From NCBI GenBank assembly GCA_030697705.1, contig JAUYPE010000002.1, positions 4,312 through 68,311 on the forward strand: a stretch of 64,000 bases of DNA. The letters run 5' to 3'. A model generated the notes under the pieces. That model had not been told where the DNA came from. It searched no databases and saw nothing but the letters and a program-made list of their open reading frames with translations. Made by a program: the position numbers and the translations under genes. Below are positions 713 to 57,461 of the stretch, one piece after another; position 1 is the first letter of the stretch, and the number at the start of each line of letters is the position of its first letter. The DNA is from a bacterium (GTDB lineage: Bacteria > Patescibacteriota > Minisyncoccia > Sungbacterales > HO2-52-23).

Positions 713-1816
713 CTATTTGTCCAGACATCGGTAAAGTTCTTGATATTCTCCTATTCGTTTTTCCCACGATGAGGCGCGAGCAAATGCGCGTGAGGCATCT
801 GACATTTTTTGGCGGAGTTCTTGATTGGCAAGAATTTTTTGCAAGGCGGCGGCAAAGTCGTCAGGATCACGCGTAGGAACGAGAATACTGTTTTCGCCAT
901 CGCGCACCGCATCGTCAATCCCGCAGTTTTTGCTTCCCACCACCGGAAGACCTGCGGCGGCGGCTTCCAGAAATACTAAACCAAAACCCTCTACATCATG
1001 ATTCACATTTTGTGAAAAAAGACAAAAGAGTTCGGCTCCCTGATAGATATCGCTCAACGCCTCGCAGTTTTCTATACCGTCCAAAATAATAACGCGCCCT
1101 TCGAGTTGTAATTCCTTGATAAGTTTGGTAAGCCGTTCGTCATAGTCATGTTTATACCTTTTACCGACGATGACATAGTTCAGATGAGGAAATGCTGTAG
1201 CTATTTTCGCAAACGCACGGATGCTGAAATGGTATCCCTTCCGCCAGCGGATCGTACCCACACCGAGAATATAATCCTTGAGTCCCGCCGTGTCATATGC
1301 GCCATAAGGTTTGGCAAAAAAATCAGCATCAACACCGTGGTTGATGACGCGAATTTTCAGGTTGGGTATTTTTTTCAGAATCTCGTCTCGCGTAAATGAG
1401 CTGATAGCGGTAACGGTATTCGCCCGGGCGTAGGCATACCGAACCGGCCAAGAGTATAGCCAATGATACAGCGGTAAAATTGAACCGCTCCCCGTTGCGG
1501 TAATGATTATTTTTTTCCTAAGACCGAGTGAGGCGAAAACCGCGATGATCCCGTACGGAAACGCATCAAGCGCATGAATAATATCCGCGTTTTTCAGCGT
1601 GCGGCGAATACGGGGAAGAGCGCGAAACAACCGCCACTTGTTGGGATAGAGAATCGCTTCTTCATAATCCTCTCCGGTTCTAACCGTCGTGAGAACGCGC
1701 ACGTGACTCCCCACATCCGCACGCACAGCAGAAATCAACCGGCGCGAGAAGACGCCGGCACCGTTGTCAGTATGAATATTGTGCGTCAGGAAGACGATCC
1801 GCATACTTTTTTGCAA
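713..1816 (-). CDS. glycosyltransferase family 4 (GT1-fold, retaining)
   Basis: C-terminal EGFGLVFLEAAAAGLPVVGS motif (E-x7-E GT4 signature); 367 aa. Confidence 0.75.
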   Translation of the reverse strand: MQKSMRIVFLTHNIHTDNGAGVFSRRLISAVRADVGSHVRVLTTVRTGEDYEEAILYPNKWRLFRALPRIRRTLKNADIIHALDAFPYGIIAVFASLGLRKKIIITATGSGSILPLYHWLYSWPVRYAYARANTVTAISSFTRDEILKKIPNLKIRVINHGVDADFFAKPYGAYDTAGLKDYILGVGTIRWRKGYHFSIRAFAKIATAFPHLNYVIVGKRYKHDYDERLTKLIKELQLEGRVIILDGIENCEALSDIYQGAELFCLFSQNVNHDVEGFGLVFLEAAAAGLPVVGSKNCGIDDAVRDGENSILVPTRDPDDFAAALQKILANQELRQKMSDASRAFARASSWEKRIGEYQELYRCLDK

Positions 1817-2874
1817 ACCGCCGTCATCTCACGACCGGCTTTGTGCCATGAGAATAGTTTCGTCCGCTCATGACCTTTTTTAATAAGCTCCTCGCGCACA
1901 CCCGGCTCATCCGCAATCCGCGCCATCGCACCGGCTATCGCTTCAGGACGGTGCGGATCAATCAAAAGCGCCGCATCTCCACCGACTTCAGCAAGCGAGG
2001 ATTGATCGGATGTAACGACGGGAATGCCGCAATCCATTCCCTCTAAAACCGGATAGCCAAAACCCTCTATAAAACTGGGAAAAACGAGAGCCATGGCGCG
2101 GCGATACATATAAGAAAGCTGACCATCATTCATGTGCCCGGGGAAGATAATTTTCTCTTCCAGTTTCTCTGCCGTGATATATTCGCGAATCGCGTCCGCA
2201 TAGGGACCGACCGCATTTCCGGCAATGACGAGGTGATAGTCGCGATGTGTTTTTTGAAACGCGTTGAATCCGCGCACGACATTGAATACATTCTTACGCT
2301 CTTTCACGATACCGACAAAGAGGAAGAAATTTTCCGGCAGAGCAAGCCGCGTTTCGGGAACGGCGCAGACACGCTTGAAACCGCACCGCACGACATCAAT
2401 TTTTTCCGCCTGCATATGAAAAATACGCATCGTCTCTCGCTTGGTTGCTTCGGAAATGGCGACGATACGGTCGGCGCGCCAAAGCGAACGGCGATGATAC
2501 CAATAGGTTATGGTATTGAGAATCCTGCCAAAAAATCCGTGCGGGGGAAAATCAAGATAGGCGAAATCAAGAGCAAGCGCGATGGATTTAGGCGGTCGCC
2601 AGAACAGCGGCAGAACGGGCGTGTTAAAAACATACACATCGGCACGAGGCGCGGTTTTCAGGCGATCAAGCCAAAGATAGCCGCTCCCCAAGATTTCAAT
2701 ACGCCAATTTTTTCCGGAGAATTCCGGCAAAACGCGTGGCTTGTTTTTGAGAAAAATGATATAGTCGTTTTCTCTGTCCTCCGCGATCATGCCGGTCGTC
2801 AATTCAAAAATCGTCCGCGCGAGTCCGGCGGGCTTATCCTCACCGTAGGGATGGAGAACGATGCCGATTTTCAT
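1786..2874 (-). CDS. glycosyltransferase family 4
   Basis: FIEGFGYPVLEGMDCGIPVVTSD GT4 motif; 31-nt overlap with the downstream GT. Confidence 0.75.
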   Translation of the reverse strand: MKIGIVLHPYGEDKPAGLARTIFELTTGMIAEDRENDYIIFLKNKPRVLPEFSGKNWRIEILGSGYLWLDRLKTAPRADVYVFNTPVLPLFWRPPKSIALALDFAYLDFPPHGFFGRILNTITYWYHRRSLWRADRIVAISEATKRETMRIFHMQAEKIDVVRCGFKRVCAVPETRLALPENFFLFVGIVKERKNVFNVVRGFNAFQKTHRDYHLVIAGNAVGPYADAIREYITAEKLEEKIIFPGHMNDGQLSYMYRRAMALVFPSFIEGFGYPVLEGMDCGIPVVTSDQSSLAEVGGDAALLIDPHRPEAIAGAMARIADEPGVREELIKKGHERTKLFSWHKAGREMTAVCKKVCGSSS

Positions 2875-4022
2875 ACAAGTTGGCTCTCCATAAAGTGTAC
2901 TATGCGTAGTGCCCGCTCACCCCATGAAGAGTGCAAATGCTGATAAGCTTGATTGACCTTATCCTGTGCCTCATCGGGATGTTCAAAAATATATCTGATC
3001 CTTTCTGGAATGTCTGCGGCCTTATCTGCCGGATAAACGAACGCTTCATTGTTGGAAAGAATACTCGCAATCGCCGGCGTCACGCTTGCAAGAATCGGAC
3101 GACGCGCCGCCGCATACTCAAATATCTTCATAGGCGAAGTATAAAAATATGAATAGTCATCCTTCTCGGTTCCCAGAACGATCAAGACATCAGCCGCCCA
3201 AAGCCAACGGGGAATTTCCGCAAAAGGTTTTTGCCCGACACACACAAGATTTGCAGGTTGTTCGTTTATTAAACCAACGGTACGCAATTCTTCAGCAGTT
3301 CCTCCTACGAGATAAAAGAGAATATTCGGCATAAGGATTGCCGCTTCAACAAATTGTCCCAATCCTTTCCATGGATAGACCTTGCCGATATACATTACCA
3401 TTCGCCGGTCAGATGAAAGACCGAGAAGAGTACGGGCAACTTCTTTGCTTTCCGGCTTATCAAACAAAGCACGGTCAACCGCATTCGGTTCAACTATATT
3501 TTTTTTGTTAGGAACATGAAAACGATAACACAACTGCGCCTTGATAATTTCGTTAATTGATATGACGCCGGATGCATATCGAAAGAGAAGAATGAATTGC
3601 CATAACTTCTTTTTCGCATCGTGCATTTCAACGAAATACGGCACACCAAGGAACGGGATGAGAAAAAAAGAAAACTGGTCAAGATCGGTCGTGTAGATAA
3701 CGAACTTCTCGTGGCGTACCCAGTGCTTCCAACCGAGATAAAAAAAATATCCCACCGCAAAGCTCAATGAACCGAGAAAAAAACCGAACCGGCCGAATGT
3801 ATAGAGCGGCAGGATGCGGAGCCGTTTGAGCGGAATGTCCACACGCAAACCGTAAAAATCTTTTACGCTTCGGGTATCTGTTTCTCGTCGCGGCACGACC
3901 AACTCAAGGTTAACACCCACCTCCAAAAACGCCTCGCACATTTTGGCAAGTTGAATACCGTGCGCCCGTTCGGTTGGCATGCGCGCGTTGGCGATATAAT
4001 AAATTTTATAGGGAAAGTCCAT
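2871..4022 (-). CDS. glycosyltransferase (GT4-like)
   Basis: N-term MDFPYKIYYIANARMPTERAHGIQ (GT4 N-domain), C-term FEYAAARRPILAS; 4-nt overlap with the upstream gene. Confidence 0.6.
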   Translation of the reverse strand: MDFPYKIYYIANARMPTERAHGIQLAKMCEAFLEVGVNLELVVPRRETDTRSVKDFYGLRVDIPLKRLRILPLYTFGRFGFFLGSLSFAVGYFFYLGWKHWVRHEKFVIYTTDLDQFSFFLIPFLGVPYFVEMHDAKKKLWQFILLFRYASGVISINEIIKAQLCYRFHVPNKKNIVEPNAVDRALFDKPESKEVARTLLGLSSDRRMVMYIGKVYPWKGLGQFVEAAILMPNILFYLVGGTAEELRTVGLINEQPANLVCVGQKPFAEIPRWLWAADVLIVLGTEKDDYSYFYTSPMKIFEYAAARRPILASVTPAIASILSNNEAFVYPADKAADIPERIRYIFEHPDEAQDKVNQAYQHLHSSWGERALRIVHFMESQLV

Positions 4023-23506: not shown

Positions 23507-26179
23507 TCAACTCTTCGCCGTTATTGCAACGCGGGAGGGAAGTCTTTTGACCTGTTTTGAGAATGAAACAACATCATCGCGGACATCAGCGAGAAGCGAT
23601 TCGCCGTCCACTATTTTATTTGCGATAAGCTCGCCCGCAAGCGGGTCAAGAATGTATTGCTGAATCGCCCGTTTGAGCGGCCGCGCACCGTATTGCGGGT
23701 CATACCCCTTCGTGCCGATGAATTTTTTGAGTTCTGACGTAAAGGCGATGGTAATATCCCGCGCAACTATGCGGCGGCGCACCATTTCAAGCTGAATATC
23801 CACGATGCGCTGAATTATCTCAACTCCCAAAGATGAGAAGATGATAATCTCATCCAGACGATTCAAAAATTCCGGACGGAAGTGACGCTCCAGCGCTTTA
23901 CGAATCTTGTCCCTCATGCTTCCTTCTTTCTCCTCATGCGTGTCCTCGCCAGAACCCGCAAAACCGAGCCGCCCCATTTCTTTGACATACTCGCCGCCAA
24001 TATTGGAGGTCATGATGATAATCGTGTTTTTGAAATTCACCACACGACCCTTGGCATCCGTGAGTCGGCCGTTATCAAGAATTTGCAAGAGAATGTTAAA
24101 CACCTCTGGATGAGCTTTTTCTATCTCGTCAAAAAGAATGACGGAGTACGGACGGTGGCGCACGAGTTCGGTCAGCTGACCACCCTCTTCATAACCGACA
24201 TAACCGGGCGGCGAGCCGACGAATTTGGAGGCGGTGTGACGCTCCATATATTCGCTCATATCCATGCGGATAAGCGCTTTTTCATCGCTGAACAAAAACC
24301 CGGCGAGCGTCTTGGCAAGCTCGGTCTTCCCCACACCCGTCGGTCCGAGAAACATAAACGACCCAATGGGGCGGTTTTCTTCACTGATACCTGCACGCGA
24401 TCGGCGCACCGCGTGGGCGATCTTGGTAATCGCTTCGTCCTGACCGATAACGCGAAGCCGCAGTTCGTCCTCCATGCGGATGAGGCGAGACATCTCGGTC
24501 TCCAGCATCTTGGTAACGGGAATGCCCGTCCAGCGCGCAACGACGGCGGCGACATCCTCCTCCCCCACCTCGCCGCGCGGCGAAGATCGCGTATGCTGAA
24601 GCGCGGTGAGCCGCTCCTCAACTTCTTTTAATTTTTTTTCGGTCTGGGGAATCTTGCCATAACGGTACTCGGCAACCGCGCCGAACTCTCCCGAGCGCTC
24701 GGCAATATCGGCTTCCTGCCGGAACGAATCAAGCTCTTTTTTGAGCGTACGCACTTCAACAAGTCGCTCCTTCTCCTCCTGCCATGCCGATTCTGACGCC
24801 GCAATGCCCGCCTGCAGTTCCGTAACATCCTTTTCCACTTTTTTGAGCCGTTCTTTGGCACGGCGGTCGGTTTCTTTTTTCAATGCCTCGCGTTCAATTT
24901 CAAGCTTCATAATGCGCCGACGCGTCTCGTCAAGCTCCTTGGGAATACTGTCCATTTCCAATCGTAACGAAGACGCCGCCTCATCAATCAAGTCCACGGC
25001 TTTGTCGGGCAAAAATCTATCGGCGATATAGCGCGCCGAGAGGTTCGCCGCCGCAATTAGTGCGCCATCGGTAATTTTAATCCCATGGTGCGCTTCGTAT
25101 TTCGGCTTGAGTCCGCGCAAAATCGCCACAGCATCCTCCACGCTCGGCTCGTCCACATACACCGGCTGGAATCGCCGCGCAAGCGCCGGATCGCGCTCAA
25201 TATGGCGCTGATATTCGCGCAGGGTGGTAGCACCGATAGCATGAAGCTCACCGCGCGCGAGCGCCGGTTTGAGCATATTTGCAGCATCAATCGCGCCCTC
25301 CGCCGCACCCGCACCAACAAGCGTGTGCAGTTCGTCTATGAAAATAACATACTTGCCCGCCCCGCGCTCTATTTCCCGCAGTATCGCCTTCAGCCGATCT
25401 TCAAACTCGCCACGGTATTTCGTCCCGGCGACAATCGCCGCCAGATCAATGGAAATGACTTCTTTTTCTTTTAATGTCTCGGGTACATCGCCTGCAACAA
25501 TCCGCTCGGCAAGCCCCTCAACGATGGCGGTCTTGCCCACGCCTGCCTCGCCTATGAGGACGGGATTGTTTTTGCTCCGGCGCGAGAGTACCTCCATGAC
25601 GCGGCGAATTTCGGCATCCCGCCCGATGACGGGGTCAAGTTTCTCCGCCCGCGCGAGGCGGGTGAGGTTCTTGGCGTATTTTTCCAAAACATTATACTTC
25701 GTTTCCGGTTCGGCATCGGTAATCCGCTGACCGCCGCGAAGTTCCGCCAGCGCACGCATGACAACTTCTTTATTTAACCCTTCACGCTCCAAAAGCTCTT
25801 TGGCACGCGTCGGTATCTCCAGGAGAGCGAGAAAAAGATGCTCCGTGGAGATGAATTCATCTTTGAGATGCGCCGCCTCGCGGTGTGCCTGCTCAATGGA
25901 CTTCGCCAAGTCCTGCGTGAGATACACCTGCCCCATCGGCGTAGAAACCGAAGCGCCGCGCGGCATCCCGTCAAGCGTTTCAAATAAGCGATCCATAAAC
26001 GCCGAGATGTCAATCTCCAATTTTTCCAAAATCGCGTCAACCGTCCCCTCCTCTTGCAAGGCAAGGGCGGCAAGCAAATGGAGCACATCAATCTGTTGAT
26101 GTGAGCGTTCAAGCGCCAAGTCATGCGCTTTTTTGAGCACCTCTTGAGCTTTTATCGTAAATTGTTGGAATGGCGGCAT
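23507..26179 (-). CDS. clpB: ATP-dependent chaperone ClpB
   Basis: Clp N-domain; two AAA+ modules ([30 protein letters not shown]); long coiled-coil M-domain between them; no ClpP-binding loop. Start at [15 protein letters not shown] (26179). Confidence 0.9.
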
Positions 26180-26231
26180 AGATATAAATAATAACGAGAG
26201 CAATGTTTAAGTTGTTTTCTTTTCTTTGTTT

Positions 26232-46680: not shown

Positions 46681-47037
46681 TTATTTCTTGGAGTTTAGAA
46701 TAATTTTTGAGAGGATTCGTACGATCTGATCATACTCATCCAACATTTTCACATGTTGATCCTTGGAAATCAAACAAAGATCGGAAACGAGACGGATCCA
46801 AAACATCATTTCTATAGCAGATTTTCTCGCTAGGGAGATGAACTGAATAAATTCTTTCTTTGAGACTCCACCACTTCCCTCAAAGAGATTTGCAGGAATA
46901 GAACTTGCCGCCTTTACCATTTGTGACGACAGTACAAAACCTTCACTGTTTCTTGGAAAATTCCTTGTCGCTAGGATAATAGACAGAGCAAAAGTATAAC
47001 ACCTCTCCTGAATATTCTCTGCCTTATTATTCAGCAT
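46681..47037 (-). CDS. four-helix-bundle protein (23S rRNA intervening-sequence protein family)
   Basis: SSQMVKAASSIPANLFEGSGGVSKKEFIQFISLARKSAIE matches the family signature; gene is markedly AT-rich. Start chosen at MLNNKAEN; the ORF-track frame opens at 47058, inside the prfB 3' end. Confidence 0.6.
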   Translation of the reverse strand: MLNNKAENIQERCYTFALSIILATRNFPRNSEGFVLSSQMVKAASSIPANLFEGSGGVSKKEFIQFISLARKSAIEMMFWIRLVSDLCLISKDQHVKMLDEYDQIVRILSKIILNSKK

Positions 47038-47047
47038 TTTGCATTTA

Positions 47048-48152
47048 TCATTTATCATTCTCTCTTATCTCCGCATCTATAAACTCATCCAAGTCGCCGT
47101 CAAGGACTTTATCAATTTGGGAGGTTTCTATCTCTGTGCGGTGGTCTTTGACCATTTGGTAGGGATGCATGACATACGAGCGAATCTGGCTTCCCCACTC
47201 AATCGCCACCTTTTCATTGCGCACGCCACGGCGTTCTTGTTCCTGCTGGAGTAATTTTAACTGATAGAGCTTTGCCCGCACAAGCTCCATCGCCGTGTGA
47301 CGGTTTTGATCCTGCGATCGCTCGGATTGCGATGCGGACTGCAGTCCCGTGGGAAGATGGGTAATGCGAACTGCCGTCTCGCGCTTGTTCACATTCTGCC
47401 CGCCCGGACCTGAAGAACGGAAGAAATCAATCTTCAGATCTTCGGGTTTGATTTCAACCTCTTCAGCCGCGACGAATCCCGGCATCACGTCCACCAGCGC
47501 AAATGAAGTATGGCGCAAATCTTGCGAAGAAAAAGGGGAGATACGGACTAAACGATGCACTCCCGCTTCTTTTTTCAAATACCCGTACGCGTAGGGCGCT
47601 TCTATTAACAATGTGGCGTTCTTAATCCCCCATCCTGAAGGCCCACCCTGCTCGCCGAAGTGCTCGTGGATTACTTTGGTCCTCCACCCTCGATGCTCGC
47701 AAAATCTCCCGTACATCCGCCACAAAATCGCCGCCCAATCCTCCGCATCACGCCCACCGGCTCCGGCATAAATGGACAAAGCCGCGTTGCCCTTATCGTA
47801 TTTTCCCGCAAAATAAAGCTCCGTCTCCACATCCTTCATCTCTTTCGCTAAAATTTCCACCCGGTCGGCGATTTCTTTCTCCAGCGCGGCATCTCCGCCG
47901 CTCACTGCCAAAAGCTCCTGCAAACTCCCCGCCTCGCTCGTGAGCCGATCCCACCGCTCTATTTCGCGCTTGAGCACGGACAACTCCTGCGCGCGCTCCG
48001 TCGCATACTCGCGACGATCCCAGAATCCCGCCTCCTGCATCTCATGTTCTATTTTCAGAACTTCTTCACGCTTTTTGAGTACCTCAAAGCCGGTCCCGAT
48101 ACATCGGGATGTCAGCCATTAATCGCTCAAGTTTTTCCCCTGTTTCCTGCAT
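47048..48152 (-). CDS. prfB: peptide chain release factor 2 with programmed +1 frameshift
   Basis: SPF and GGQ motifs. The main frame begins at 48085 with no N-terminal domain. Upstream frame-0 ORF MQETGEKLERLMADIPMYRDRL ends at CTT TGA (48089-48084); a +1 slip continues as EVLKKREEVLKIEHEMQEAGFW..., the classical RF2 autoregulatory site. Confidence 0.8.
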
Positions 48153-48887: not shown

Positions 48888-49505
48888 CTATACAATACCG
48901 TGGCCGGAAAGAAAGTCCTGCACGACGGCAAACAACTTCTCATGCCCGACGGCGTTGGGGTGAAGTCCGTCCTCCAAGTCCTTTTTCGCATCTATAACAC
49001 TCCATACCGGCACATAATGCACTCCCGCCAAAGCCGCGCATTTCTGCAGACCCGCATCATAGCGCTCAATATTCTTCTGCGCAAAGAAAATATCATCTTC
49101 AAACGGCATTGTTCGCGCGTCATCCACCGGTGTAAGCCCGACCACCACGATGTTTCTGGCAAGCCGCTTCGCCTCGGTAAGAATTTTTTTCATGTTCTCA
49201 ATGAACACGGCGTAGGGAACATGCGGCGTGCCGGCAGGGTCCCGATACCGCGCATCGTTAATACCCACGGCAAACATAATCACATGCGGCTCGCGCGCCA
49301 TCGCCTCGGTTGTGAGGCGGTGCAGAATATCGCGCGTGGTGTTGCCGGGAATCCCCAGATGATACACGAAAAAGTAGTCCTGAAAGCGCGAGGCGAGTGT
49401 GCGATCGTGCAAAAAAGACCGCAATCGATCCACCCATCCGCCAGATGCGTCCCACGCGCCGTAGGCAATACTGTCGCCGAAAATACAGATGTTCGTGGTG
49501 TTCAT
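48888..49505 (-). CDS. SGNH/GDSL-family hydrolase
   Basis: ICIFGDSIAYG (GDS block), GINDA, and DGLHPN (catalytic Asp/His block). Confidence 0.75.
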   Translation of the reverse strand: MNTTNICIFGDSIAYGAWDASGGWVDRLRSFLHDRTLASRFQDYFFVYHLGIPGNTTRDILHRLTTEAMAREPHVIMFAVGINDARYRDPAGTPHVPYAVFIENMKKILTEAKRLARNIVVVGLTPVDDARTMPFEDDIFFAQKNIERYDAGLQKCAALAGVHYVPVWSVIDAKKDLEDGLHPNAVGHEKLFAVVQDFLSGHGIV

Positions 49506-49617
49506 TGAAGGTAAAAACATCAAAAAAGCTCATAGGTACCGCCTGGAAATACCAGAAACACTATAGCACACGGAAAAAAATTGCGCGAGTCGCGGGAAGC
49601 GCAGTATACTAGCAGAA

Positions 49618-50013
49618 ATGGCTATGGTCTTTCTCATCCGCGACTATCTCCGCTGGCACTATACCGCCGCCGTGCGTGAGCTTTTGGGCATTCTAGGAAA
49701 TCTCCTCTGGTTTTTCGCCCACCTTTTTTCTCTCCGTCTGCTCCTCGCTACTCTCTTTTCACCATTTTATAGAATCCATGAGGATTATTTCAGTGTCGCT
49801 GATATTGAAAAAACGCTTGCCAGCATCGCCGCAAATCTCGTTTCCCGCGTTGTCGGATTTTTATTGAGGATTATCGTCATCGCTCTCGGCATTATTACGG
49901 AAGGCGTACTCATTGTACTCATCTTGCCGATTTTGCTTGTCTGGATTTTTCTGCCCGCTATTATCATTGGTTCTTTGGGACTGGGCATATTCGGATTGTT
50001 GCATAATCTATGA
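49618..50013 (+). CDS. small hydrophobic membrane protein (co-transcribed with Clp-like ATPase)
   Basis: 131 aa, 3-4 TM; stop overlaps the start of the next gene (ATGA). Confidence 0.45.
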   Translation: MAMVFLIRDYLRWHYTAAVRELLGILGNLLWFFAHLFSLRLLLATLFSPFYRIHEDYFSVADIEKTLASIAANLVSRVVGFLLRIIVIALGIITEGVLIVLILPILLVWIFLPAIIIGSLGLGIFGLLHNL

Positions 50014-52550
50014 AAACGCCTTTTTTGGATTTCAAAAAAAATAAATTCTTCGGAGCGCTCGTTCTTGAGCGTTATTTCCCGCGGCAATGGCGACGGACGA
50101 TTAGAGTGCTCGCGGATATTGGTCTCGTCATTGCCGTGCTCCTCGTCGGCTATAGTGCTGTCGCTTTTGCTGTCGCCCATCAGAAAGGTGTGGCTGTGGG
50201 CGGGATGCCCCCCTTTAGTGAGCTTCCTCCTTACAATGAGCTTGTTGGCACGGGAATACTTATATTTTCTCTCGGCATACGCCTCTGTATTCTTTCCCTC
50301 AACGCCTATATACGCTCGCTGACGCTTGAGAAAAAGGGGGATCCCACGGACAAGAATCTAGCCGGACGGATGGATTATTATGTCGCGACACTCGCCTATA
50401 CCGCCTCTCGCACGCGTGGAGGGGCGAGCGTTGCAACTATAGCCAAAGCGCTTCCCCGCACTGCCATTGGTCGCGAGTTTCTCAAACGACTCGGCATGAA
50501 CGCTCAAGAATATGCCGCGCGAACCGACATAAAAAAATCCGAGCGGCCAGCGTATCTTGAACCGCAAAAAACTTTCGCTAAACCCCCACTCCTTGCCGAC
50601 ACACTTCCTGCAAACGGCGAGATCACATTCGTGCATTGTGCCGACATCCTCTGGGAGCATGACGAATATTTTCAAAAGCTCTGTTTCGCACGCGGACTCA
50701 CCAAGGACGATGTTACGGGTACGGCGGAATGGGCTTCGGGCGCGGCGGACGAGCAGGACCGTGCGGCGCGGTGGTGGCGGCGCGAACGGTTGGCGCGAAT
50801 TCCGGGATTTGCCAAAGGATGGGCGTATGGCAGGACCTATCTCTTAGACCGGTTTGGTACCGAGCTTACTACAAATAATAATATGGCCGCCGAACGCATC
50901 ACTGGCAGAGAGAGCGAGGTTGAAAAAATTGAAACGGCTCTGCTCAAACGATCGGGGGCGAATGCGCTCATCATCGGCGAGCCGGGAGCCGGAAGGCATG
51001 CCATTATCGCCGCGTTCGCGGAGCACATGCGCGAGGGGCGCGTCCATCCCGCGCTTGAGCATAAGCGCATTATTGAACTTCAGTTCTCAACCGTAACGGG
51101 CGCAGGAAAAACCAAAGGCGAAACGGAATCACTCCTCATCACACTCTTCAATGAAGCCGTGCGGGCGGGTAATATTATTCTCTTGATAAGCGACCTGCCC
51201 GCATTTGTATCCTCCCTTGGAGCACTCGGCATCGGCGCGGGTACGCTTCTGGCACCCTACCTAGAACATTCCGGTTTGCATCTTATCGCCACAGCAGACA
51301 CCGCGCGCTTCCGCCAAGTACTGGAAAGCGATGCAGGACTCATGAAATACTTTGAACGCGTAGAGCTCACCGAGCCGGACCCGCACCGCCTCCTCGCTAT
51401 TCTTGAGGACCACGCGCTCGTACTTGAAACAACATACCGCAACCGCATCATCATCACTTATTCCACGCTCATTAAAGCAGTTGACGGAGCAGTCAATCAT
51501 ATTGTCATCGGCGCACTTCCCCAGCGCGCGATTCAACTTCTGGAAGAGGCGACGGCACACGCGGTTGCGTCACATGCGCCTTTTCTCATACCTGAACACA
51601 TCAACGCCATTGTTTTACAAAAAACAAACATGCCTTCGGGCGCCATTGGCAAGGAAGAACAAGGCGCACTGCTTGATATGGAAGAACGACTCTGCACGCG
51701 CGTCATCGGACAAGACGAGGCAACGGCGGCGATTGCCGACACGATTCGCCGCGCGCGTACCGGCATCCGCAATCCAAGCCGCCCCATCGGCTCATTTCTT
51801 TTTCTCGGACCCACAGGTGTCGGAAAAACAGAAACGGCGAAGGCATTAGCCGCCGTGTATTTTGGCAACGAGGAGGCGATGCTACGCTTTGATATGAGCG
51901 AGTATGCGACCCAAGCGCAGGCCAAACAGCTCCTCGGCTCATTCGCCAAGGGCGAGCCGGGGTTACTCGCAAGCCGCATCCGCCGCGCGCCCTACGCCGT
52001 CCTGCTTTTGGACGAGTTTGAAAAATCGCACTCCGATGTGCGCAATATATTCCTGCAAATTCTTGATGAGGGCTTCTTTTCCGACCATTTGGGGAAGCAT
52101 GTCAATCTCCGCAACGCCATCATCATCGCTACCTCAAACGCCGGCGCGCTTGAGATTTTGGAGCTCGTTCAAAAAGGAGGCGATCCGGTAGCCGCGCGCG
52201 AGACGCTTATCGCCCATATTGAACAAAAAGGCATTTTCTCGCCGGAACTTTTGAATCGGTTTGATTCACTCGTGATCTTCCGCCCGCTTGATGAGAATGC
52301 GCGACGCGCCGTGGCAAAACTACTGCTGGAAAAATTGGTGGCGCGGCTTAAACGGCAAAATTATCTCCTCACAATTACGCCTGAACTCATTGATACGGTC
52401 GCAACGCGCGGCTACCATCCGGAGCTCGGTGCGCGCCCCATGCAAAGATTCATTCAAGACAAGATAGAAAAAACAATCGCCAACCGCATGATCAAAGGTG
52501 AGCTCACTTTCGGCACCCCCTTCTCCCTCTCCCCTGCCGATATCGCGTAA
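50010..52550 (+). CDS. membrane-anchored Clp-like AAA+ ATPase with degenerate D1 and intact D2
   Basis: N-terminal TMs; two Clp_N-like repeats. D1 Walker A GEPGAGRHAII (K->R, T->H) and Walker B ILLISDLP (DE->SD) are inactivated. D2 has [25 protein letters not shown], sensor-2 GARPMQR. No IGF/IGL ClpP loop and no long M-domain. Confidence 0.7.
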   Translation: MKTPFLDFKKNKFFGALVLERYFPRQWRRTIRVLADIGLVIAVLLVGYSAVAFAVAHQKGVAVGGMPPFSELPPYNELVGTGILIFSLGIRLCILSLNAYIRSLTLEKKGDPTDKNLAGRMDYYVATLAYTASRTRGGASVATIAKALPRTAIGREFLKRLGMNAQEYAARTDIKKSERPAYLEPQKTFAKPPLLADTLPANGEITFVHCADILWEHDEYFQKLCFARGLTKDDVTGTAEWASGAADEQDRAARWWRRERLARIPGFAKGWAYGRTYLLDRFGTELTTNNNMAAERITGRESEVEKIETALLKRSGANALIIGEPGAGRHAIIAAFAEHMREGRVHPALEHKRIIELQFSTVTGAGKTKGETESLLITLFNEAVRAGNIILLISDLPAFVSSLGALGIGAGTLLAPYLEHSGLHLIATADTARFRQVLESDAGLMKYFERVELTEPDPHRLLAILEDHALVLETTYRNRIIITYSTLIKAVDGAVNHIVIGALPQRAIQLLEEATAHAVASHAPFLIPEHINAIVLQKTNMPSGAIGKEEQGALLDMEERLCTRVIGQDEATAAIADTIRRARTGIRNPSRPIGSFLFLGPTGVGKTETAKALAAVYFGNEEAMLRFDMSEYATQAQAKQLLGSFAKGEPGLLASRIRRAPYAVLLLDEFEKSHSDVRNIFLQILDEGFFSDHLGKHVNLRNAIIIATSNAGALEILELVQKGGDPVAARETLIAHIEQKGIFSPELLNRFDSLVIFRPLDENARRAVAKLLLEKLVARLKRQNYLLTITPELIDTVATRGYHPELGARPMQRFIQDKIEKTIANRMIKGELTFGTPFSLSPADIA

Positions 52551-52599
52551 AAAAGCGGGAAGACCATGCGTCTTCCCGCTGATATGCCTGAACACAAAT

Positions 52600-52904: not shown

Positions 52905-54287
52905 CTATTCTGCCTTCAATGCCGATTCGGTATATACATTAGAAGCATTCCAGAGAAGCCAGCCATGACCCGATGACTTCTCCGCCGCATCCGCCTGCAG
53001 TCGGACTTTGAGCTCGCCTGACGGCCTGCCCGCAACACGATCCGCCTCATGAAAAAAGTCCTCCAGCCACGGTCGCAACCGAGCGTGGCGGGGCGTCGTT
53101 GAACTTACTCCCACCGCGGGAACCGTTGAGCTCGCCGCCACCGCGACAGATGAGGATGCTGTGCGCTTATTCAGCAAGTCCTCCGCAAAAAACATAGCCC
53201 GTTCAACGAGTATTCCGGGATTTGTCCGCGCCTGATTCACATTCCAATTGATTGCCGGAAGTTTCCGCACGGGATCGGGCGGCAAGACAAGCCCGCTGTA
53301 GTAGTGCGACGGATACACCATAAGCGAGACGAAATCAAAATTATCCCCCACATCTTCCAATCGCTGACCGATACCCACATCGCTCCCACTCGTTGCGACA
53401 TAACCAAACAAGTCGGCCGAGAGGATCAGCTCCGGCTTGTACGCCTTAAGATTGTCGTGCAGAAACTCAAAAAAACTTTTCATCACAACATATTTGGGCG
53501 TCTTTCCATCCCATGCGGGATACATCGCCTTGGCAACATCGCCGTCCGAGGGAAAGCGCACATAATCAAACTGAACTTCGTCAAACCCGAGATCCGCCAT
53601 TTTTTTTGCCAACGCGAGAATATACTGCCGCGCGCCCGGGGACGCCGGATCCATCCAGTAGCCACCTTTATTATCCTGCCAGAGCGGTATGGACGGCGTA
53701 ACTCCCGCGGGAGCTGGAACGCGTAGATATTTCTTCCGGGCGCATCCCGCATTGGGAATCGCTTTGGCGGACGCGTGCTTGAGGTACCATTCCGGATGCG
53801 CATTGATCTGCGAGGCATCTTTGAACGCCACAATGCGCGCAATCGCCCAAATGTTTTTTTGGTGCAACTCGGTGAGCAGACTACCCAAATGTTTTTCGTT
53901 GTAGTCGGGACCACATACCTCTTTGACATCAACGACGATGGCATTGATCTCCGTCTTTTCGGCAAGCGCAATGATATTATTCCGCAAACCGATCGCGCCA
54001 CGCCCCTGATCGTTCGCGACATCAGCGGTCATATAGAGCCCCTTGATATTCGCCGCGCGCATCTCGGCTTCTCGCATCCGCTCCGCAAGAGGTTTTTCTT
54101 CTTTTTGTGGCGCGAGAGCCACCCCGTGTGACAAGGACGTTGAGCTTGCTATTGATCCCACCATACCCGCAATTTCTCGCGACATTCCCCCACGCCAAAC
54201 AAGCCCGCCCAGAGCGGCAAGAGTGATGACGAGCGATCCTCCTAGGATCAAGTATTTTTTAGCAAAGCGAGAAAACCAAACAAACAT
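52905..54287 (-). CDS. putative glycoside-hydrolase-like protein (GHL/DUF4015-type TIM barrel), membrane anchored
   Basis: N-terminal TM; ...AIVVDVKEVCGPDYNEKHL..., ...GGYWMDPASPGARQYIL..., DEVQFDYVRFPSDGD consistent with the GH-like hypothetical family; assignment tentative. Confidence 0.45.
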   Translation of the reverse strand: MFVWFSRFAKKYLILGGSLVITLAALGGLVWRGGMSREIAGMVGSIASSTSLSHGVALAPQKEEKPLAERMREAEMRAANIKGLYMTADVANDQGRGAIGLRNNIIALAEKTEINAIVVDVKEVCGPDYNEKHLGSLLTELHQKNIWAIARIVAFKDASQINAHPEWYLKHASAKAIPNAGCARKKYLRVPAPAGVTPSIPLWQDNKGGYWMDPASPGARQYILALAKKMADLGFDEVQFDYVRFPSDGDVAKAMYPAWDGKTPKYVVMKSFFEFLHDNLKAYKPELILSADLFGYVATSGSDVGIGQRLEDVGDNFDFVSLMVYPSHYYSGLVLPPDPVRKLPAINWNVNQARTNPGILVERAMFFAEDLLNKRTASSSVAVAASSTVPAVGVSSTTPRHARLRPWLEDFFHEADRVAGRPSGELKVRLQADAAEKSSGHGWLLWNASNVYTESALKAE

Positions 54288-54508: not shown

Positions 54509-57298
54509 CTACTTTAATTGTTTAAGAATATCTCCCAGTCGCCGCTGTGCCTCGCCGTAGCGTGTCCAATCACCATCCCTTTGCGCTCGGAGCGCCTCTT
54601 CATATGCGGCGACTGCTCTTCGTATGCGCTCCTGAACATCTTGAGTGGGCGCCACTTGCGGTCTCGCTGTCTGGGACCCCTCTGATCTTATTCCTGTTCC
54701 GCCACCAAAGATTCTCATTAACCCCTCCTCCAGCGTCTCTTCCATGGCAATTTTATTTTCATACGCCACAACCACTCGTTTTAACTCCGGAATTTTTCCG
54801 GCCTCAGCTTTGAGATAGAGCGGGCGCACATACAGAAGAGATTCTTCAATCGGGATAACCAAAAGCGGACCTTGAATTACTTGCGACCCGCCTTGACTCC
54901 AAAGCGAGATCTGCTGGCTAATCTCGGGGTCTTGGTTAATTCTACCTATAATTTGTTTAGGTCCGAACACGAGCTTATCTTTAGGAAAACGATAGACCAA
55001 CAATTTACCGTAGCTTTCCCCATCGTTACGGGCGACCATCCAAGAGGACAAATTGTCTTTTGCGCGGGGAGTAAAAGGCAACATCAAAACATATTCCTCT
55101 TTTTTCTCTCCCGGCAACTTCATAATAATATGCCGCGGTTGCATCGGCGGAATCGCGCCTGTGCGGGATGCCCCCTCACCCTCTGCCGCAATGGCCGGAA
55201 TTTCCCACTGGTCTTCTTTGTTGTAAAAAATCTGCGGATCGTCCATGTGGTAGACCGAATACGCGGCAGTCTGCAGGGTGAAGATATCTTCGGGATAGCG
55301 CAAATGGGAAACGAGACTTTTTGGCATCTCCGAAAGCGGCCGGAATGTTCCGGGGAAAATCTTAGCGTATGTTTTTATTATCGGATCCTCTCTATCCGCC
55401 TGATAGAAGACGACACTGCCACTATACGCATCAACCACTACTTTGACCGAGTTTCTGATGTAGTTTATATTTCCGCCGTTTAACCGTATCAGTTCCGAGT
55501 AAGGATAACGATCGCTCGTGGTATACGCATCGGCGATCCAATACACCTTGCCGTCGGCAATGACGATATAGGGGTCTCGGTCAAAGGTCAAAAACGGCGC
55601 GATCTTGGCGACCCTTTCGGCAATGGTGCGGTAATACAGAATACGGCTCTCGCTGGTTATGTCATTGGACAAAAGCAGTTTAAGCGACTGGAATTTCACT
55701 GCGTAAAAGACGCGCCTTAAAAACGAGTTTATCGCCACTCCGCCTTTGCCTTCATATGTTGCGTAGACATTTTCTTCACCCTTGGGATAATCAAACTCAC
55801 GGGACTTTGTTTTGACGATAACATAGTCATTTGAAAGTTCACCAAAGTAGATTTCCGGGCGCGAAATTTCAAGCTCTTTCATATTTGCCTTTGGCGGCAA
55901 ATCCTTAACGAACAAAACCGGCAAACCTTCGGGAGTAACTTGATTCACCGGTCCGGCCGCCACACCGTATCCATGCGTAAATGTCAGCCGTTCGTTAATC
56001 CAATTTCTATTCGGGAGACTCTCTGAAGCCAACTCCCGCGGAGAGAGCATGATCTGGCGAATCTCGCCATCTATGATATAGCGATCGTTATCAACTTCGG
56101 CAAATTCGTAATAGGTTCTGATTTCTTGTATCTGGGAAAACGTTGATAAAAGGGGTTTTCTATCCCACAGCCGCACATTTTTGACCGTGAGATTATTGTT
56201 CCCGATATCAGACGCGGTGAGCGGCTTATCTCCGGAGATTTCCCGTTCCTCAATTTTATCAAGCGCAAACCCCTGCCGAGTGGCGGCAATATTATACTTA
56301 ATAAATGGCGTTTCCTTCACGAGTTCATTGGGAGCAACTACGAGTTTTTGGACAAGGGACGGGATCACCGCTCCGACGAATCCCACGACAACATACAAAG
56401 AAACTGCTCCGATAAGCGGCGCCAATTTTCCTTTCCACGCCCAAAAGGCAGCCGAAACTGCCGCGAGTGCTGCCGCAGTTATTGAAATCCACAGCATGAA
56501 TATTCTCACGGTTGCGTCTGTGTATGTCGCGCCAAATACTAAACCGCTCTGACTCGTCAGGAGTGCAAAGCGGGAAAGATAGACTCCGGCGACAATGGTT
56601 GAGAGAAAAATGGCGAGCAGGATACCAAGATGAATTCTTGCCCCGTTAGAAGTAAAGAGACGACTGCTGATACGTAAACGCATCGGACTTCTAACGGGGC
56701 GAGCCGCGCTTTCTGTCTGCTCGGGTAGACCTCCGAACTGAAGACTGCCTCGCAAAAAATATATAATCGCGGAACCGGCAAGCGATAACAGAACAAGAAA
56801 TTTTATCAACCCCAATCCTATTTGAAAGACTGGGAGAGAGAACAGATAAAAGCCGACATCTTTACCGAAGATAGGATCTGCTGTGCCGAAAGCCACACCT
56901 GAAATAAATTTTAAGACCTCCTGCCAATTGGCTGCTGTCACGAGTCCGAAAAAAACCGCGATTACTACACTCAACACAACGGCTAATTTTTTAACAATGC
57001 GACTGTCCACATTCACTACCTGTTGACCAGTTAAGGCCGCCGGTAAAACCGGCATCCAAGAGATTTTTGAGCGGAGCGCCACGGAGAAGTTGATGAGCAA
57101 AAAAACCGCGGCAAAAATTCCCGCTGATGAAAACAATGCTATTTTAGCGATGAGAGATTTAAAAAAGATTTGAGTGTGGCCAACCTCGGAAAACCACCAC
57201 CAGTCAGTAACAAAGCCAACAATACCTGAAAAAAGGAAAAAGATAACAAAAAGCCCGATAAAGAAAAATCGTGTAAGATACTTTGGGATAGCAGTCAT
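54509..57298 (-). CDS. UPF0182-family large membrane protein
   Basis: N-terminal multi-TM region with WWWF motif (FVTDWWWFSEVGHTQIFF), ~930 aa. Start taken at MTAIPKY; the ORF-track frame extends to 57409. Confidence 0.7.
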   Translation of the reverse strand: MTAIPKYLTRFFFIGLFVIFFLFSGIVGFVTDWWWFSEVGHTQIFFKSLIAKIALFSSAGIFAAVFLLINFSVALRSKISWMPVLPAALTGQQVVNVDSRIVKKLAVVLSVVIAVFFGLVTAANWQEVLKFISGVAFGTADPIFGKDVGFYLFSLPVFQIGLGLIKFLVLLSLAGSAIIYFLRGSLQFGGLPEQTESAARPVRSPMRLRISSRLFTSNGARIHLGILLAIFLSTIVAGVYLSRFALLTSQSGLVFGATYTDATVRIFMLWISITAAALAAVSAAFWAWKGKLAPLIGAVSLYVVVGFVGAVIPSLVQKLVVAPNELVKETPFIKYNIAATRQGFALDKIEEREISGDKPLTASDIGNNNLTVKNVRLWDRKPLLSTFSQIQEIRTYYEFAEVDNDRYIIDGEIRQIMLSPRELASESLPNRNWINERLTFTHGYGVAAGPVNQVTPEGLPVLFVKDLPPKANMKELEISRPEIYFGELSNDYVIVKTKSREFDYPKGEENVYATYEGKGGVAINSFLRRVFYAVKFQSLKLLLSNDITSESRILYYRTIAERVAKIAPFLTFDRDPYIVIADGKVYWIADAYTTSDRYPYSELIRLNGGNINYIRNSVKVVVDAYSGSVVFYQADREDPIIKTYAKIFPGTFRPLSEMPKSLVSHLRYPEDIFTLQTAAYSVYHMDDPQIFYNKEDQWEIPAIAAEGEGASRTGAIPPMQPRHIIMKLPGEKKEEYVLMLPFTPRAKDNLSSWMVARNDGESYGKLLVYRFPKDKLVFGPKQIIGRINQDPEISQQISLWSQGGSQVIQGPLLVIPIEESLLYVRPLYLKAEAGKIPELKRVVVAYENKIAMEETLEEGLMRIFGGGTGIRSEGSQTARPQVAPTQDVQERIRRAVAAYEEALRAQRDGDWTRYGEAQRRLGDILKQLK

Positions 57299-57461
57299 AC
57301 TATTGGTCAATAATAGCACTATTTCTTTGACATAGCCACAAGTCGCGCGCTCCAGAAACTTATGCCGAGAAAACGTGCGACAAAAAATGAATCTCCCCGA
57401 TGCAAGCATCGGGGTAAGTAATGAATATATAAAATGATTTTTTTAGGAATCAAGATATTTT

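Follow-up and report, generated by a model that had tools for sequence, protein, structure and literature searches.

The textbook Clp/Hsp100 motor is a soluble unfoldase that works with two active rings and with pore loops that carry tyrosines. Substrates enter them at the N-domain/D1 face and leave at D2. ClpV is soluble as well, with both rings active. Extraction of membrane proteins follows an established route through FtsH and Msp1/ATAD1, and FtsH uses a Phe in its pore loop. Here, we analyze a two-gene locus from a bacterium of the candidate phyla radiation (CPR, or Patescibacteria; order Sungbacterales) that encodes a Clp/Hsp100-like ATPase with a predicted membrane anchor and an inactivated D1, together with a small membrane protein. 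The locus spans positions 49618-52550 of a 64,000-nucleotide stretch of contig JAUYPE010000002.1 (assembly GCA_030697705.1), the whole of which we call the window.

Several described machines share one or another property with this pair. In ClpB, two clamps grip the substrate, Y251 (with K250/R252) and Y653/V654 (PMC6546751). Pex1/Pex6 of the eukaryotic peroxisome is a double-ring AAA+ machine whose D1 ring is inactive and whose motor is D2, and it is held at the membrane through a small tail-anchored protein, Pex15/PEX26, that touches the N-domains (PMC5762779). Torsins, which are related to Clp/Hsp100, lack aromatic pore loops, are membrane-associated, and work with a membrane cofactor, LAP1 or LULL1 (PMC5425593).

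Results

A two-gene unit encodes a Clp/Hsp100-like ATPase and a small membrane protein

The ATPase gene (50010..52550; this and all further features lie on the plus strand unless stated) encodes an 846-aa protein identical to NCBI MDZ4299948.1, which is named there "AAA family ATPase". It is preceded by a gene for a 131-aa protein (49618..50013) with an N-terminal bundle of short helices and then a long helix, the last ~45 residues being hydrophobic. The two open reading frames (ORFs) share an ATGA overlap, in which the ATPase ATG occupies 50010-12 and the TGA of the small gene 50011-13. Both neighbors, a GDSL hydrolase gene (48888-49523) and a gene for a DUF4015 protein (52905-54287), are on the opposite strand, and the pair is thus an isolated two-gene unit.

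By its D2 module and its module order, the large protein is a member of the class-I Clp/Hsp100 superfamily, and it falls outside ClpB, ClpA/ClpC, ClpV, ClpG, and ClpK as these are defined. Its NCBIfam scores are three- to sixfold under the model cutoffs: 402 versus 1232 bits (TIGR03346) and 355 versus 1417 bits (NF008118) for ClpB, 362 versus 993 bits (TIGR02639) and 273 versus 1350 bits (NF008263) for ClpA, 328 versus 885 bits for ClpV, 332 versus 1900 bits for ClpG, and 326 versus 1900 bits for ClpK. When HMMER was run against solved structures, residues 278-542 (D1) aligned with residues 152-414 of Thermus thermophilus ClpB (94 bits to ClpB D1) and residues 528-836 (D2) with residues 523-833, the alignment jumping from ClpB residue 414 to 523 and so skipping the M-domain. 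A first-pass annotation of this DNA had called the protein a second, specialized Clp paralog that is membrane-tethered and independent of ClpP, and the analyses below bear out this description.

D2 is intact, and D1 has lost its catalytic residues

The D2 module (51645..52529) is of the active ATPase type. Pfam recognized AAA_2 (PF07724, 1.3e-41, residues 591-753) and ClpB_D2-small (PF10431, 1.5e-18, residues 760-833), and alignments placed Walker A (GPTGVGKT, 51807-51830), Walker B (VLLLDEFE, 51999-52022), sensor-1 (ATSNAG, 52128-52145), the Arg finger (LNRFD, 52251-52265), and sensor-2 (GARPMQ, 52428-52445), all of them intact. We then counted motifs over 67 non-redundant family members, using as denominator the sequences that cover each position. 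The D2 residues were present without exception: Walker A GKT in 66/66, Walker B DE in 66/66, the sensor-1 Asn in 65/65, the Arg finger in 64/64, and the sensor-2 Arg in 63/63. Mean pairwise identity within D2-large is 54%.

D1 (50880..51644; large subdomain residues 291-470, small subdomain 471-545) presents a different picture. Its Walker A site reads GEPGAGRH (50976-50999) in place of GEPGVGKT, and its Walker B site, IILLISDL (51174-51197), contains ILLISDL in place of ILFIDEL. HMMER and MAFFT alignments agree on both substitutions, so that their original reading was not an artifact of misalignment. Three further sites have changed: the pore loop has lost its Tyr (KYR to KTK, at GAGKTKGE, 51099-51122), the Arg fingers are replaced (RRF to KYF, at GLMKYFE, 51336-51356), and the sensor-1 residue is not kept. 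Pfam PF00004 gave no significant match to D1, where AAA_16 alone appeared, below its cutoff. Of the four Pfam families that the first-pass annotation suggested searching for, the two belonging to D2 were recovered, whereas PF00004 and the N-terminal PF02861 (see below) were not significant.

Across the 67 members, the Walker-A Lys position of D1 is occupied by Lys in 37, Arg in 21, and another residue in nine; the Walker-A Thr/Ser is kept in only 2/67, the Walker-B DE in 7/67, the paired Arg fingers in 2/67, and a pore-loop aromatic in 0/67. Some members have no recognizable D1 P-loop at all. Loss of D1 catalysis is therefore a trait of the family, which has not conserved the binding of nucleotide by D1 either. 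Together, these alignments confirm that the protein has two AAA+ modules of which only D2 keeps its catalytic residues, and they support ATP hydrolysis being possible in D2 only. A regulatory role had been suggested for D1. Since its nucleotide-binding residues are not conserved and the P-loop is missing from some members, the sequence of D1 is less suggestive of a regulator that senses nucleotide than of a ring with a structural task, as a spacer or in assembly. D1-large has a mean pairwise identity of 33%.

Pore loops of both rings are non-canonical

In the window protein, the D1 loop (GKTKGETE) lacks the Tyr alone, for the Lys/Lys and Glu/Glu pattern on either side is retained. The D2 pore loop is shortened (LLGSFAKGEPGLL, 51930-51968): a four-residue deletion, general in the family, takes out the GYVG tyrosine and leaves a sequence of the form GS----F(A/E)K..PG. 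The Phe of this motif is present in the window protein (F645), and the aligned position is aromatic (Phe or Tyr) in 29/67 members (43%). The non-canonical D2 pore loop, and the family-wide extent of the dead D1 within a family restricted to the CPR, are features that the first-pass annotation did not contain.

These loops raise the chief alternative to a pulling machine, namely a switch that threads nothing. The D2 ATP cycle would act through a collar of D1, linker, and N-domain on a channel, pore, or other membrane structure formed by the transmembrane (TM) hairpins and the partner, following a Torsin- or NSF-like logic, and such a switch could be linked to the host-dependent life of the CPR. 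The absence of pore-loop aromatics from every D1, their presence in fewer than half of the D2 modules, and the deletion of GYVG favor this explanation, as does the precedent of the Torsins, which are Clp-related, membrane-associated, and cofactor-dependent and also lack aromatic pore loops (PMC5425593). Unlike Torsin, however, D2 has its own Arg finger and sensor-2 and needs no cofactor to complete its active site. Moreover, a Phe stands in the shortened D2 loop in 43% of members, the window protein included, and FtsH has a Phe there. On balance, and including the evidence on the partner given below, we hold the switch to be possible but unlikely.

The M-domain and the ClpP-docking loop are absent

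In all 30 family members that we aligned with canonical ClpB and ClpC, the M-domain (about 125 residues) is missing. Between the D2 sensor-1 and the Arg finger, no aligned member has an insertion or the [LIV]G[FL] motif of a ClpP-docking loop, which the ClpC controls in the same alignment do show. Both absences had been noted for the window protein at first reading; the M-domain proves to be wholly absent and not merely short. Pfam and NCBIfam scans found no peptidase domain, such as the C-terminal M41 domain of FtsH-type proteins, and the architecture is D1-D2.

The M-domain bears directly on whether the protein is a membrane-tethered but otherwise conventional ClpB/Hsp104-type disaggregase that acts on aggregated membrane proteins. 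Its best scores are indeed to ClpB (402 bits for TIGR03346; 1e-103 for T. thermophilus ClpB). In locus L005, moreover, a canonical ClpB (839-3514) adjoins the pair, and in locus L006, an HSP20 gene (1798-2220) lies two genes away; these neighbors are a faint hint of a proteostasis neighborhood, one that was not met in other loci. Yet the ClpB score is far under its cutoff, the domain that couples ClpB to DnaK is lacking in all aligned members, D1 is catalytically dead, and the tyrosines of both pore loops are gone. Neighborhoods are otherwise not conserved, and the genome already has a full ClpB elsewhere in the window (23507..26203, minus strand, 898 aa), with Clp_N, AAA, AAA_lid_9, AAA_2, and D2-small domains found by Pfam and a full-length M-domain. 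This canonical ClpB had been recorded as starting at 26179, which is the first ATG within the longer ORF. A conventional disaggregase is thus very improbable, and the activity of that name proposed in the first-pass annotation is not supported: the protein has no M-domain for DnaK coupling, and both of its rings are without the tyrosines that grip substrate in ClpB (PMC6546751).

A predicted transmembrane hairpin would direct the entry face toward the membrane

The N terminus of the ATPase begins with a predicted cytoplasmic tail that contains the family motif F.GAL.LE..FP...R (residues 13-29, 50046..50096). Next comes a TM hairpin (50118..50312), for which Kyte-Doolittle hydropathy marks segments at residues 37-57 (TM1) and 78-101 (TM2), separated by a K/R-poor loop. 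In an AlphaFold2 model of residues 1-292 (predicted local distance difference test [pLDDT] 78), helices span residues 25-58 and 77-104, in agreement with the N-terminal TM helices originally proposed. Lys and Arg number nine in the 36-residue N-tail, one in the 22-residue loop, and five in the 25 residues past TM2, a bias seen family-wide that predicts an N-in/C-in topology and a cytoplasmic ATPase. Little conservation is seen in the extracytoplasmic loop, which is short.

Below the membrane lies an N-domain (residues 105-253, 50322..50768), which AlphaFold2 models as all-helical at residues 117-253, with two similar groups of helices. The first-pass annotation had seen two Clp_N-type repeats here. 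Pfam Clp_N (PF02861) does not match the 846-aa protein even at E<=1; remote comparison is kinder to the idea. Aligned by hhalign with true Clp_N domains, the N-domain gave a probability of 69% (E 4e-5), and the two repeats fell into register. Foldseek, given the model, ranked Clp N-domains in its first five places, at non-significant values (E 0.4-2, TM-score about 0.45), and when a profile was compared with PDB sequences, the sole natural protein to match the soluble part was a "Clp amino terminal domain protein", weakly (E 1.3). Weak as each of these is, they are concordant, and the N-domain may be described as a diverged, remotely Clp_N-like domain. A family-specific linker (RWWRRERLARIPGFAKGWAYGRTYLLDRFGTELT, residues 254-287, 50769..50870) joins it to D1 and ends in the canonical Clp "L..F..DLT" N-to-D1 linker. 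W256, L261, and G274 are near-invariant (family consensus RWW..RIPG.GK.WAYG), and mean pairwise identity is 35% in the linker versus 18% in the N-domain.

Given the direction in which Clp/Hsp100 motors thread their substrates, an anchor at the N terminus would make the N-domain/D1 entry face point at the membrane. The proposal of an "extractase" fits this geometry. The same polarity argues against an export or secretion motor that would push unfolded proteins out through a channel in the membrane module, as in PTEX (HSP101-EXP2). Such a motor might be expected to look much like this one, in which an Hsp100-like ATPase with two rings is integral to the membrane and has a membrane partner of its own, and the N-domain finds its best fold matches, none of them significant, in the N-domain of Plasmodium HSP101. 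But Clp/Hsp100 substrates exit at the D2 face, which the N-terminal anchor leaves toward the cytoplasm; the pore-loop tyrosines are missing, and the extracytoplasmic loop is, as noted, short and poorly conserved. We consider export improbable, and with it, the secretion function suggested at first reading.

The small protein is a constant and sometimes fused partner

The small protein carries two conserved blocks, defined in alignments of 41 and 120 sequences. The first (49651..49773) comprises W13-H-Y, NLLWFFAHLFS, which includes F37, and TLFSPFYR, which includes P49 and R52. The second (49834..50001) begins with N.VSRVVGF..R (R77, G80, R84) and continues into a 44-residue hydrophobic stretch with W109 and P113 at its center. 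F37, P49, and P113 are invariant, and R77, G80, R84, and W109 nearly so. AlphaFold2 predicts with high confidence (pLDDT 92) an N-terminal bundle of short helices and, at residues 63-130, one long helix. The protein has no match in Pfam, NCBIfam, PHROGs, or PADLOC, and a fold search of the PDB found no solved structure like it. A profile search nevertheless retrieved at least 278 homologs, the best 120 of which are 106-163 aa long, have no Pfam domain, and, where named, are called hypothetical.

The two genes are linked in a conserved way. In the seven diverse members first inspected, a gene for a 109-138-aa protein lay directly upstream on the same strand (7/7). In a larger set of 46 loci, 44 of which had usable upstream DNA, 43 carry the small-protein domain, either in a gene directly upstream or as part of the ATPase itself; the lone exception, L045, is the most divergent locus, and it has in the same place a 138-aa ORF of marginal similarity only. 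Among the 36 unfused loci, 14 pairs overlap, 18 are separated by 0-20 nt, and four by longer gaps (at most 56 nt). At eight loci from different lineages (L020, L022, L026, L031, L035, L038, L041, and L042), the small-protein domain has been fused in frame independently, N-terminal to the ATPase in one unbroken ORF, and a database protein of 991 aa (P0242) is an end-to-end fusion of both complete proteins. The membrane protein that the first-pass annotation described as translationally coupled upstream is therefore a real partner. Fusions of this Rosetta-stone kind are strong evidence that the two proteins form a stable complex, with a stoichiometry of about 1:1, in which the partner is unlikely to be a substrate that is consumed. 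Paralogy between the small protein and the N termini of unfused ATPases was considered and rejected: the domain is not contained there, and the N termini are unrelated.

The hydrophobic tail of the small protein is probably a membrane helical hairpin with a cytoplasmic C terminus, because cytoplasmic sequence directly follows the hydrophobic stretch in the L041, L042, and P0242 fusions, as judged from their sequences. These three fusions have either none or two extra hydrophobic segments. Five others (L020, L022, L026, L035, and L038) have one, at about residues 130-165 of the fused ORFs; it follows the small-protein domain and precedes an N-domain that is shortened to its second repeat. Two charged residues within membrane segments were also seen: E94 of the small protein (49897-49899), a conserved acidic residue within the hydrophobic helix (GL..E), and R91 of the ATPase (50280-50282), a mid-membrane Arg in TM2 of the window's subgroup. 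An intramembrane salt bridge of the E94/R91 type is unconvincing: Arg and Glu occur together in four lineages, Arg without Glu in one, Glu without Arg in eight, and neither in about 17, counts that are not phylogenetically corrected.

For the non-threading switch introduced above, a constant and at times covalently fused subunit, as opposed to a consumable substrate, is what one would expect, and a ring of six copies would, by inference, bring about 24-30 membrane helices together. A channel, however, has left no sign of itself, since, apart from a single acidic residue, conservation in the membrane segments follows no polar or pore-lining pattern.

The family is large and almost restricted to the CPR

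An exhaustive profile search with the family-specific N-region as query returned 944 clusters at 50% identity (E<=1e-3), 583 of them at E<=1e-10. Nearly every full-length member is 790-860 aa long, and MDZ4299948.1 heads a distinct group of 800-870-aa proteins, none with Pfam Clp_N. The window pair has all the marks of the family: the TM hairpin, the helical N-domain, the RWW-type linker, the degenerate D1, the canonical D2, and the small protein upstream. In the genome collection, 38 confirmed loci belong to Giovannoni-, Yanofsky-, Taylor-, Portnoy-, Berkel-, and Veblenbacteria, Paceibacterota, and further Patescibacteria. Every named source is Patescibacteria/CPR save that of one further locus, L046 (CAZRDN010000113.1), from a bin labeled Gammaproteobacteria; because this contig is very short (2.4 kb), a CPR fragment placed in the wrong bin is a more probable explanation than transfer of the locus beyond the CPR. 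The check on phylogenetic distribution proposed in the first-pass annotation thus finds the dead D1 throughout the 67 members examined of a large, CPR-restricted family.

Conservation on this scale effectively refutes the notion that the locus is a decaying, functionless ClpB/ClpC duplicate beside a spurious small ORF. Decay would account for the lost or variable D1 catalytic residues and for an N-domain too diverged for Pfam. It would not account for 944 clusters with the same architecture, for intact full-length ORFs with all D2 catalytic residues present wherever covered, or for a small ORF that has at least 278 homologs with invariant residues, a confident model (pLDDT 92), and repeated in-frame fusions. 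The family is under purifying selection.

Neither the N-region of the ATPase nor the small partner matches a family in Pfam, NCBIfam, PHROGs, or PADLOC, and in the literature on Clp proteins of the CPR/Parcubacteria and on membrane-anchored Hsp100 proteins, of which our coverage is incomplete, we found no description of this machine. An anti-phage defense function or phage affiliation was rejected: PADLOC matches (DolB, 1e-32; PDC-M37B) involve the D2 region only, the small protein has none, and the neighborhoods contain housekeeping genes.

Other features of the window

Directly 3′ of the ATPase stop, between the convergent genes, lies a GC-rich stem-loop of 11 bp (52554..52580, no strand assigned), a putative element identified by consensus match only, with a T-tract on the minus strand only. 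Farther downstream, two genes from the pair, is a polytopic 966-aa UPF0182 protein (54509-57409, minus strand; Pfam 2e-293).

Close to the locus on its other side is prfB, the release factor 2 gene (47048-48152, minus strand), with a classical programmed +1 frameshift at 48084-48089. Its upstream frame reads MQETGEKLERLMADIPMYRDRL and then a stop, ending CTT TGA G, and the +1 frame runs on into a 330-aa ORF (47048-48040). At its 3′ end, prfB shares 11 nt with a 125-aa ORF (46681-47058, minus strand) that matches Pfam 23S_rRNA_IVP, the 23S rRNA intervening-sequence protein (1.5e-25). The related locus L003, whose DNA was examined as far as its DUF4015 gene, shares the prfB and DUF4015 neighbors of the window.

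The window ClpB (23507-26203, minus strand) has an insertion of ~11 residues between the D2 sensor-1 and the Arg finger, in exact register with the ClpP-docking loop of ClpC (VGLGF / KVGFG). The ClpB of L005 and the other aligned ClpBs are without it. By this feature of its sequence, the window ClpB may be a ClpB/ClpC hybrid; no ClpP-like gene was found within the window.

Discussion

We propose that the two genes encode subunits of one stable, membrane-embedded machine of the CPR/Patescibacteria, driven by D2, which pulls on or remodels membrane-associated clients without ClpP or DnaK. We put the probability of this reading at about 0.5. The architecture, the dead D1, the intact D2, the lack of an M-domain and a ClpP loop, and the constant, sometimes fused partner are sequence-level results; the remainder of the mechanism we infer. 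The ATPase hairpin and the small partner would together form a membrane module, in roughly 1:1 stoichiometry. Beneath it would sit a collar made of the diverged Clp_N-like domain and the conserved, Trp/Arg-rich linker, then a D1 ring unable to hydrolyze ATP, which need not bind it across the family and would serve as a spacer or assembly ring, and last the D2 ring, the only motor, with all cis- and trans-acting catalytic residues. A ring oligomer is suggested because the trans-acting D2 Arg finger is conserved. With the entry face at the membrane, cycles of ATP in D2 would pull on or remodel membrane-embedded or -associated clients from the cytoplasmic side, in the manner of extraction or disassembly by FtsH, Msp1, and Pex1/Pex6. 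The grip on the client would be unconventional, because the GYVG tyrosine is deleted and the Phe in its stead (F645) has an aromatic counterpart in no more than 43% of members; a collar of partner, N-domain, and linker may serve instead of processive threading by aromatic pore loops.

Several results weigh against this proposal. The canonical substrate-gripping tyrosines are missing from both rings, and the D2′ loop (EKH in ClpB) is likewise not conserved. For the small protein, fusions with and without the extra hydrophobic segment give conflicting parity of membrane passes if every such segment crosses the membrane, and AlphaFold2 draws residues 63-130 of the small protein as one helix. No conserved third gene was found in the neighborhoods of the loci inspected. 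The CIRCE/HrcA operator (controlling inverted repeat of chaperone expression) is absent upstream of the operon in 39 loci searched with up to five mismatches, which gives no regulatory link to proteostasis; nor is there one upstream of the window ClpB. Hexamer formation, ATPase activity, and a physical complex are predictions.

A more specific form of the non-threading alternative deserves mention, although we think it rather improbable. In it, the pair would be a lineage-defining machine of the CPR, and an ATP cycle in D2 only, transmitted by the inert D1 and the Clp_N-derived collar, would gate or reshape a membrane assembly of ~24-30 helices, for example a portal or envelope-remodeling device tied to the episymbiotic, host-dependent lifestyle of the CPR. 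If true, gating without threading would add to the ways in which a Clp/Hsp100 scaffold is known to act.

In any event, this family departs from four Clp/Hsp100 rules at once: it is predicted to be membrane-integral, its D1 is dead, its pore loops have no tyrosines, and a small membrane protein is its obligate subunit. The family is thus an experiment by nature, which may tell how much a D2 ring achieves by itself and what role a pseudo-ATPase ring has, and its natural fusions are ready-made single-chain constructs for structural work. To our knowledge, most lineage-specific membrane proteins of the CPR lack an assigned function. This family occurs almost only in the CPR/Patescibacteria, and genomes as small as these would hardly conserve an operon of 3 kb that they could do without.

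Comparison with known systems

ClpV/TssH, like the window protein, is a ClpP-independent class-I Clp specialized through its N-domain for one dedicated client. The window protein, however, scores 328 bits against a ClpV cutoff of 885, and no type VI secretion genes were seen in the neighborhoods that we looked at.

The highest sequence similarity is to ClpB/Hsp104, above all in D2 (47% identity to D2-large of the window ClpB), and the two have in common the ClpB_D2-small domain and the lack of a ClpP loop. The window protein differs in having no M-domain and no equivalents of Y251 and Y653, a dead D1, an integral membrane anchor, and an obligate membrane partner. In the order of its modules (N-domain, D1, D2, D2-small) and the absence of an M-domain, it is like ClpA, the sole NCBIfam or PDB relative to align in one stretch over D1 and D2 (query residues 275-836). 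Yet ClpA is soluble and has an active D1, pore-loop tyrosines, and a ClpP-docking IGL loop, and the window protein is without all four.

Two other groups resemble the pair at the membrane. In FtsH and Msp1/ATAD1, an N-terminal TM anchor also turns the AAA+ entry face to the membrane, but these are single-ring AAA proteins that lack both the Clp-type D1/D2 pair and a small partner related to the one here, and FtsH has a fused metalloprotease. Torsins have a single ring and take their Arg finger from the cofactor, whereas here D2 supplies its own (64/64); the Torsin cofactor has a degenerate AAA+ fold, whereas the partner here is a small helical membrane protein.

Pex1/Pex6 belongs to the classic AAA clade, is a heterohexamer, and is not membrane-integral; its aromatic D2 pore loops are needed for threading, and its partner is not homologous to the one described here. 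Even so, Pex1/Pex6-Pex15 is the closest working analog of the pair; it acts on membrane-associated clients that are reached from the cytosolic side.

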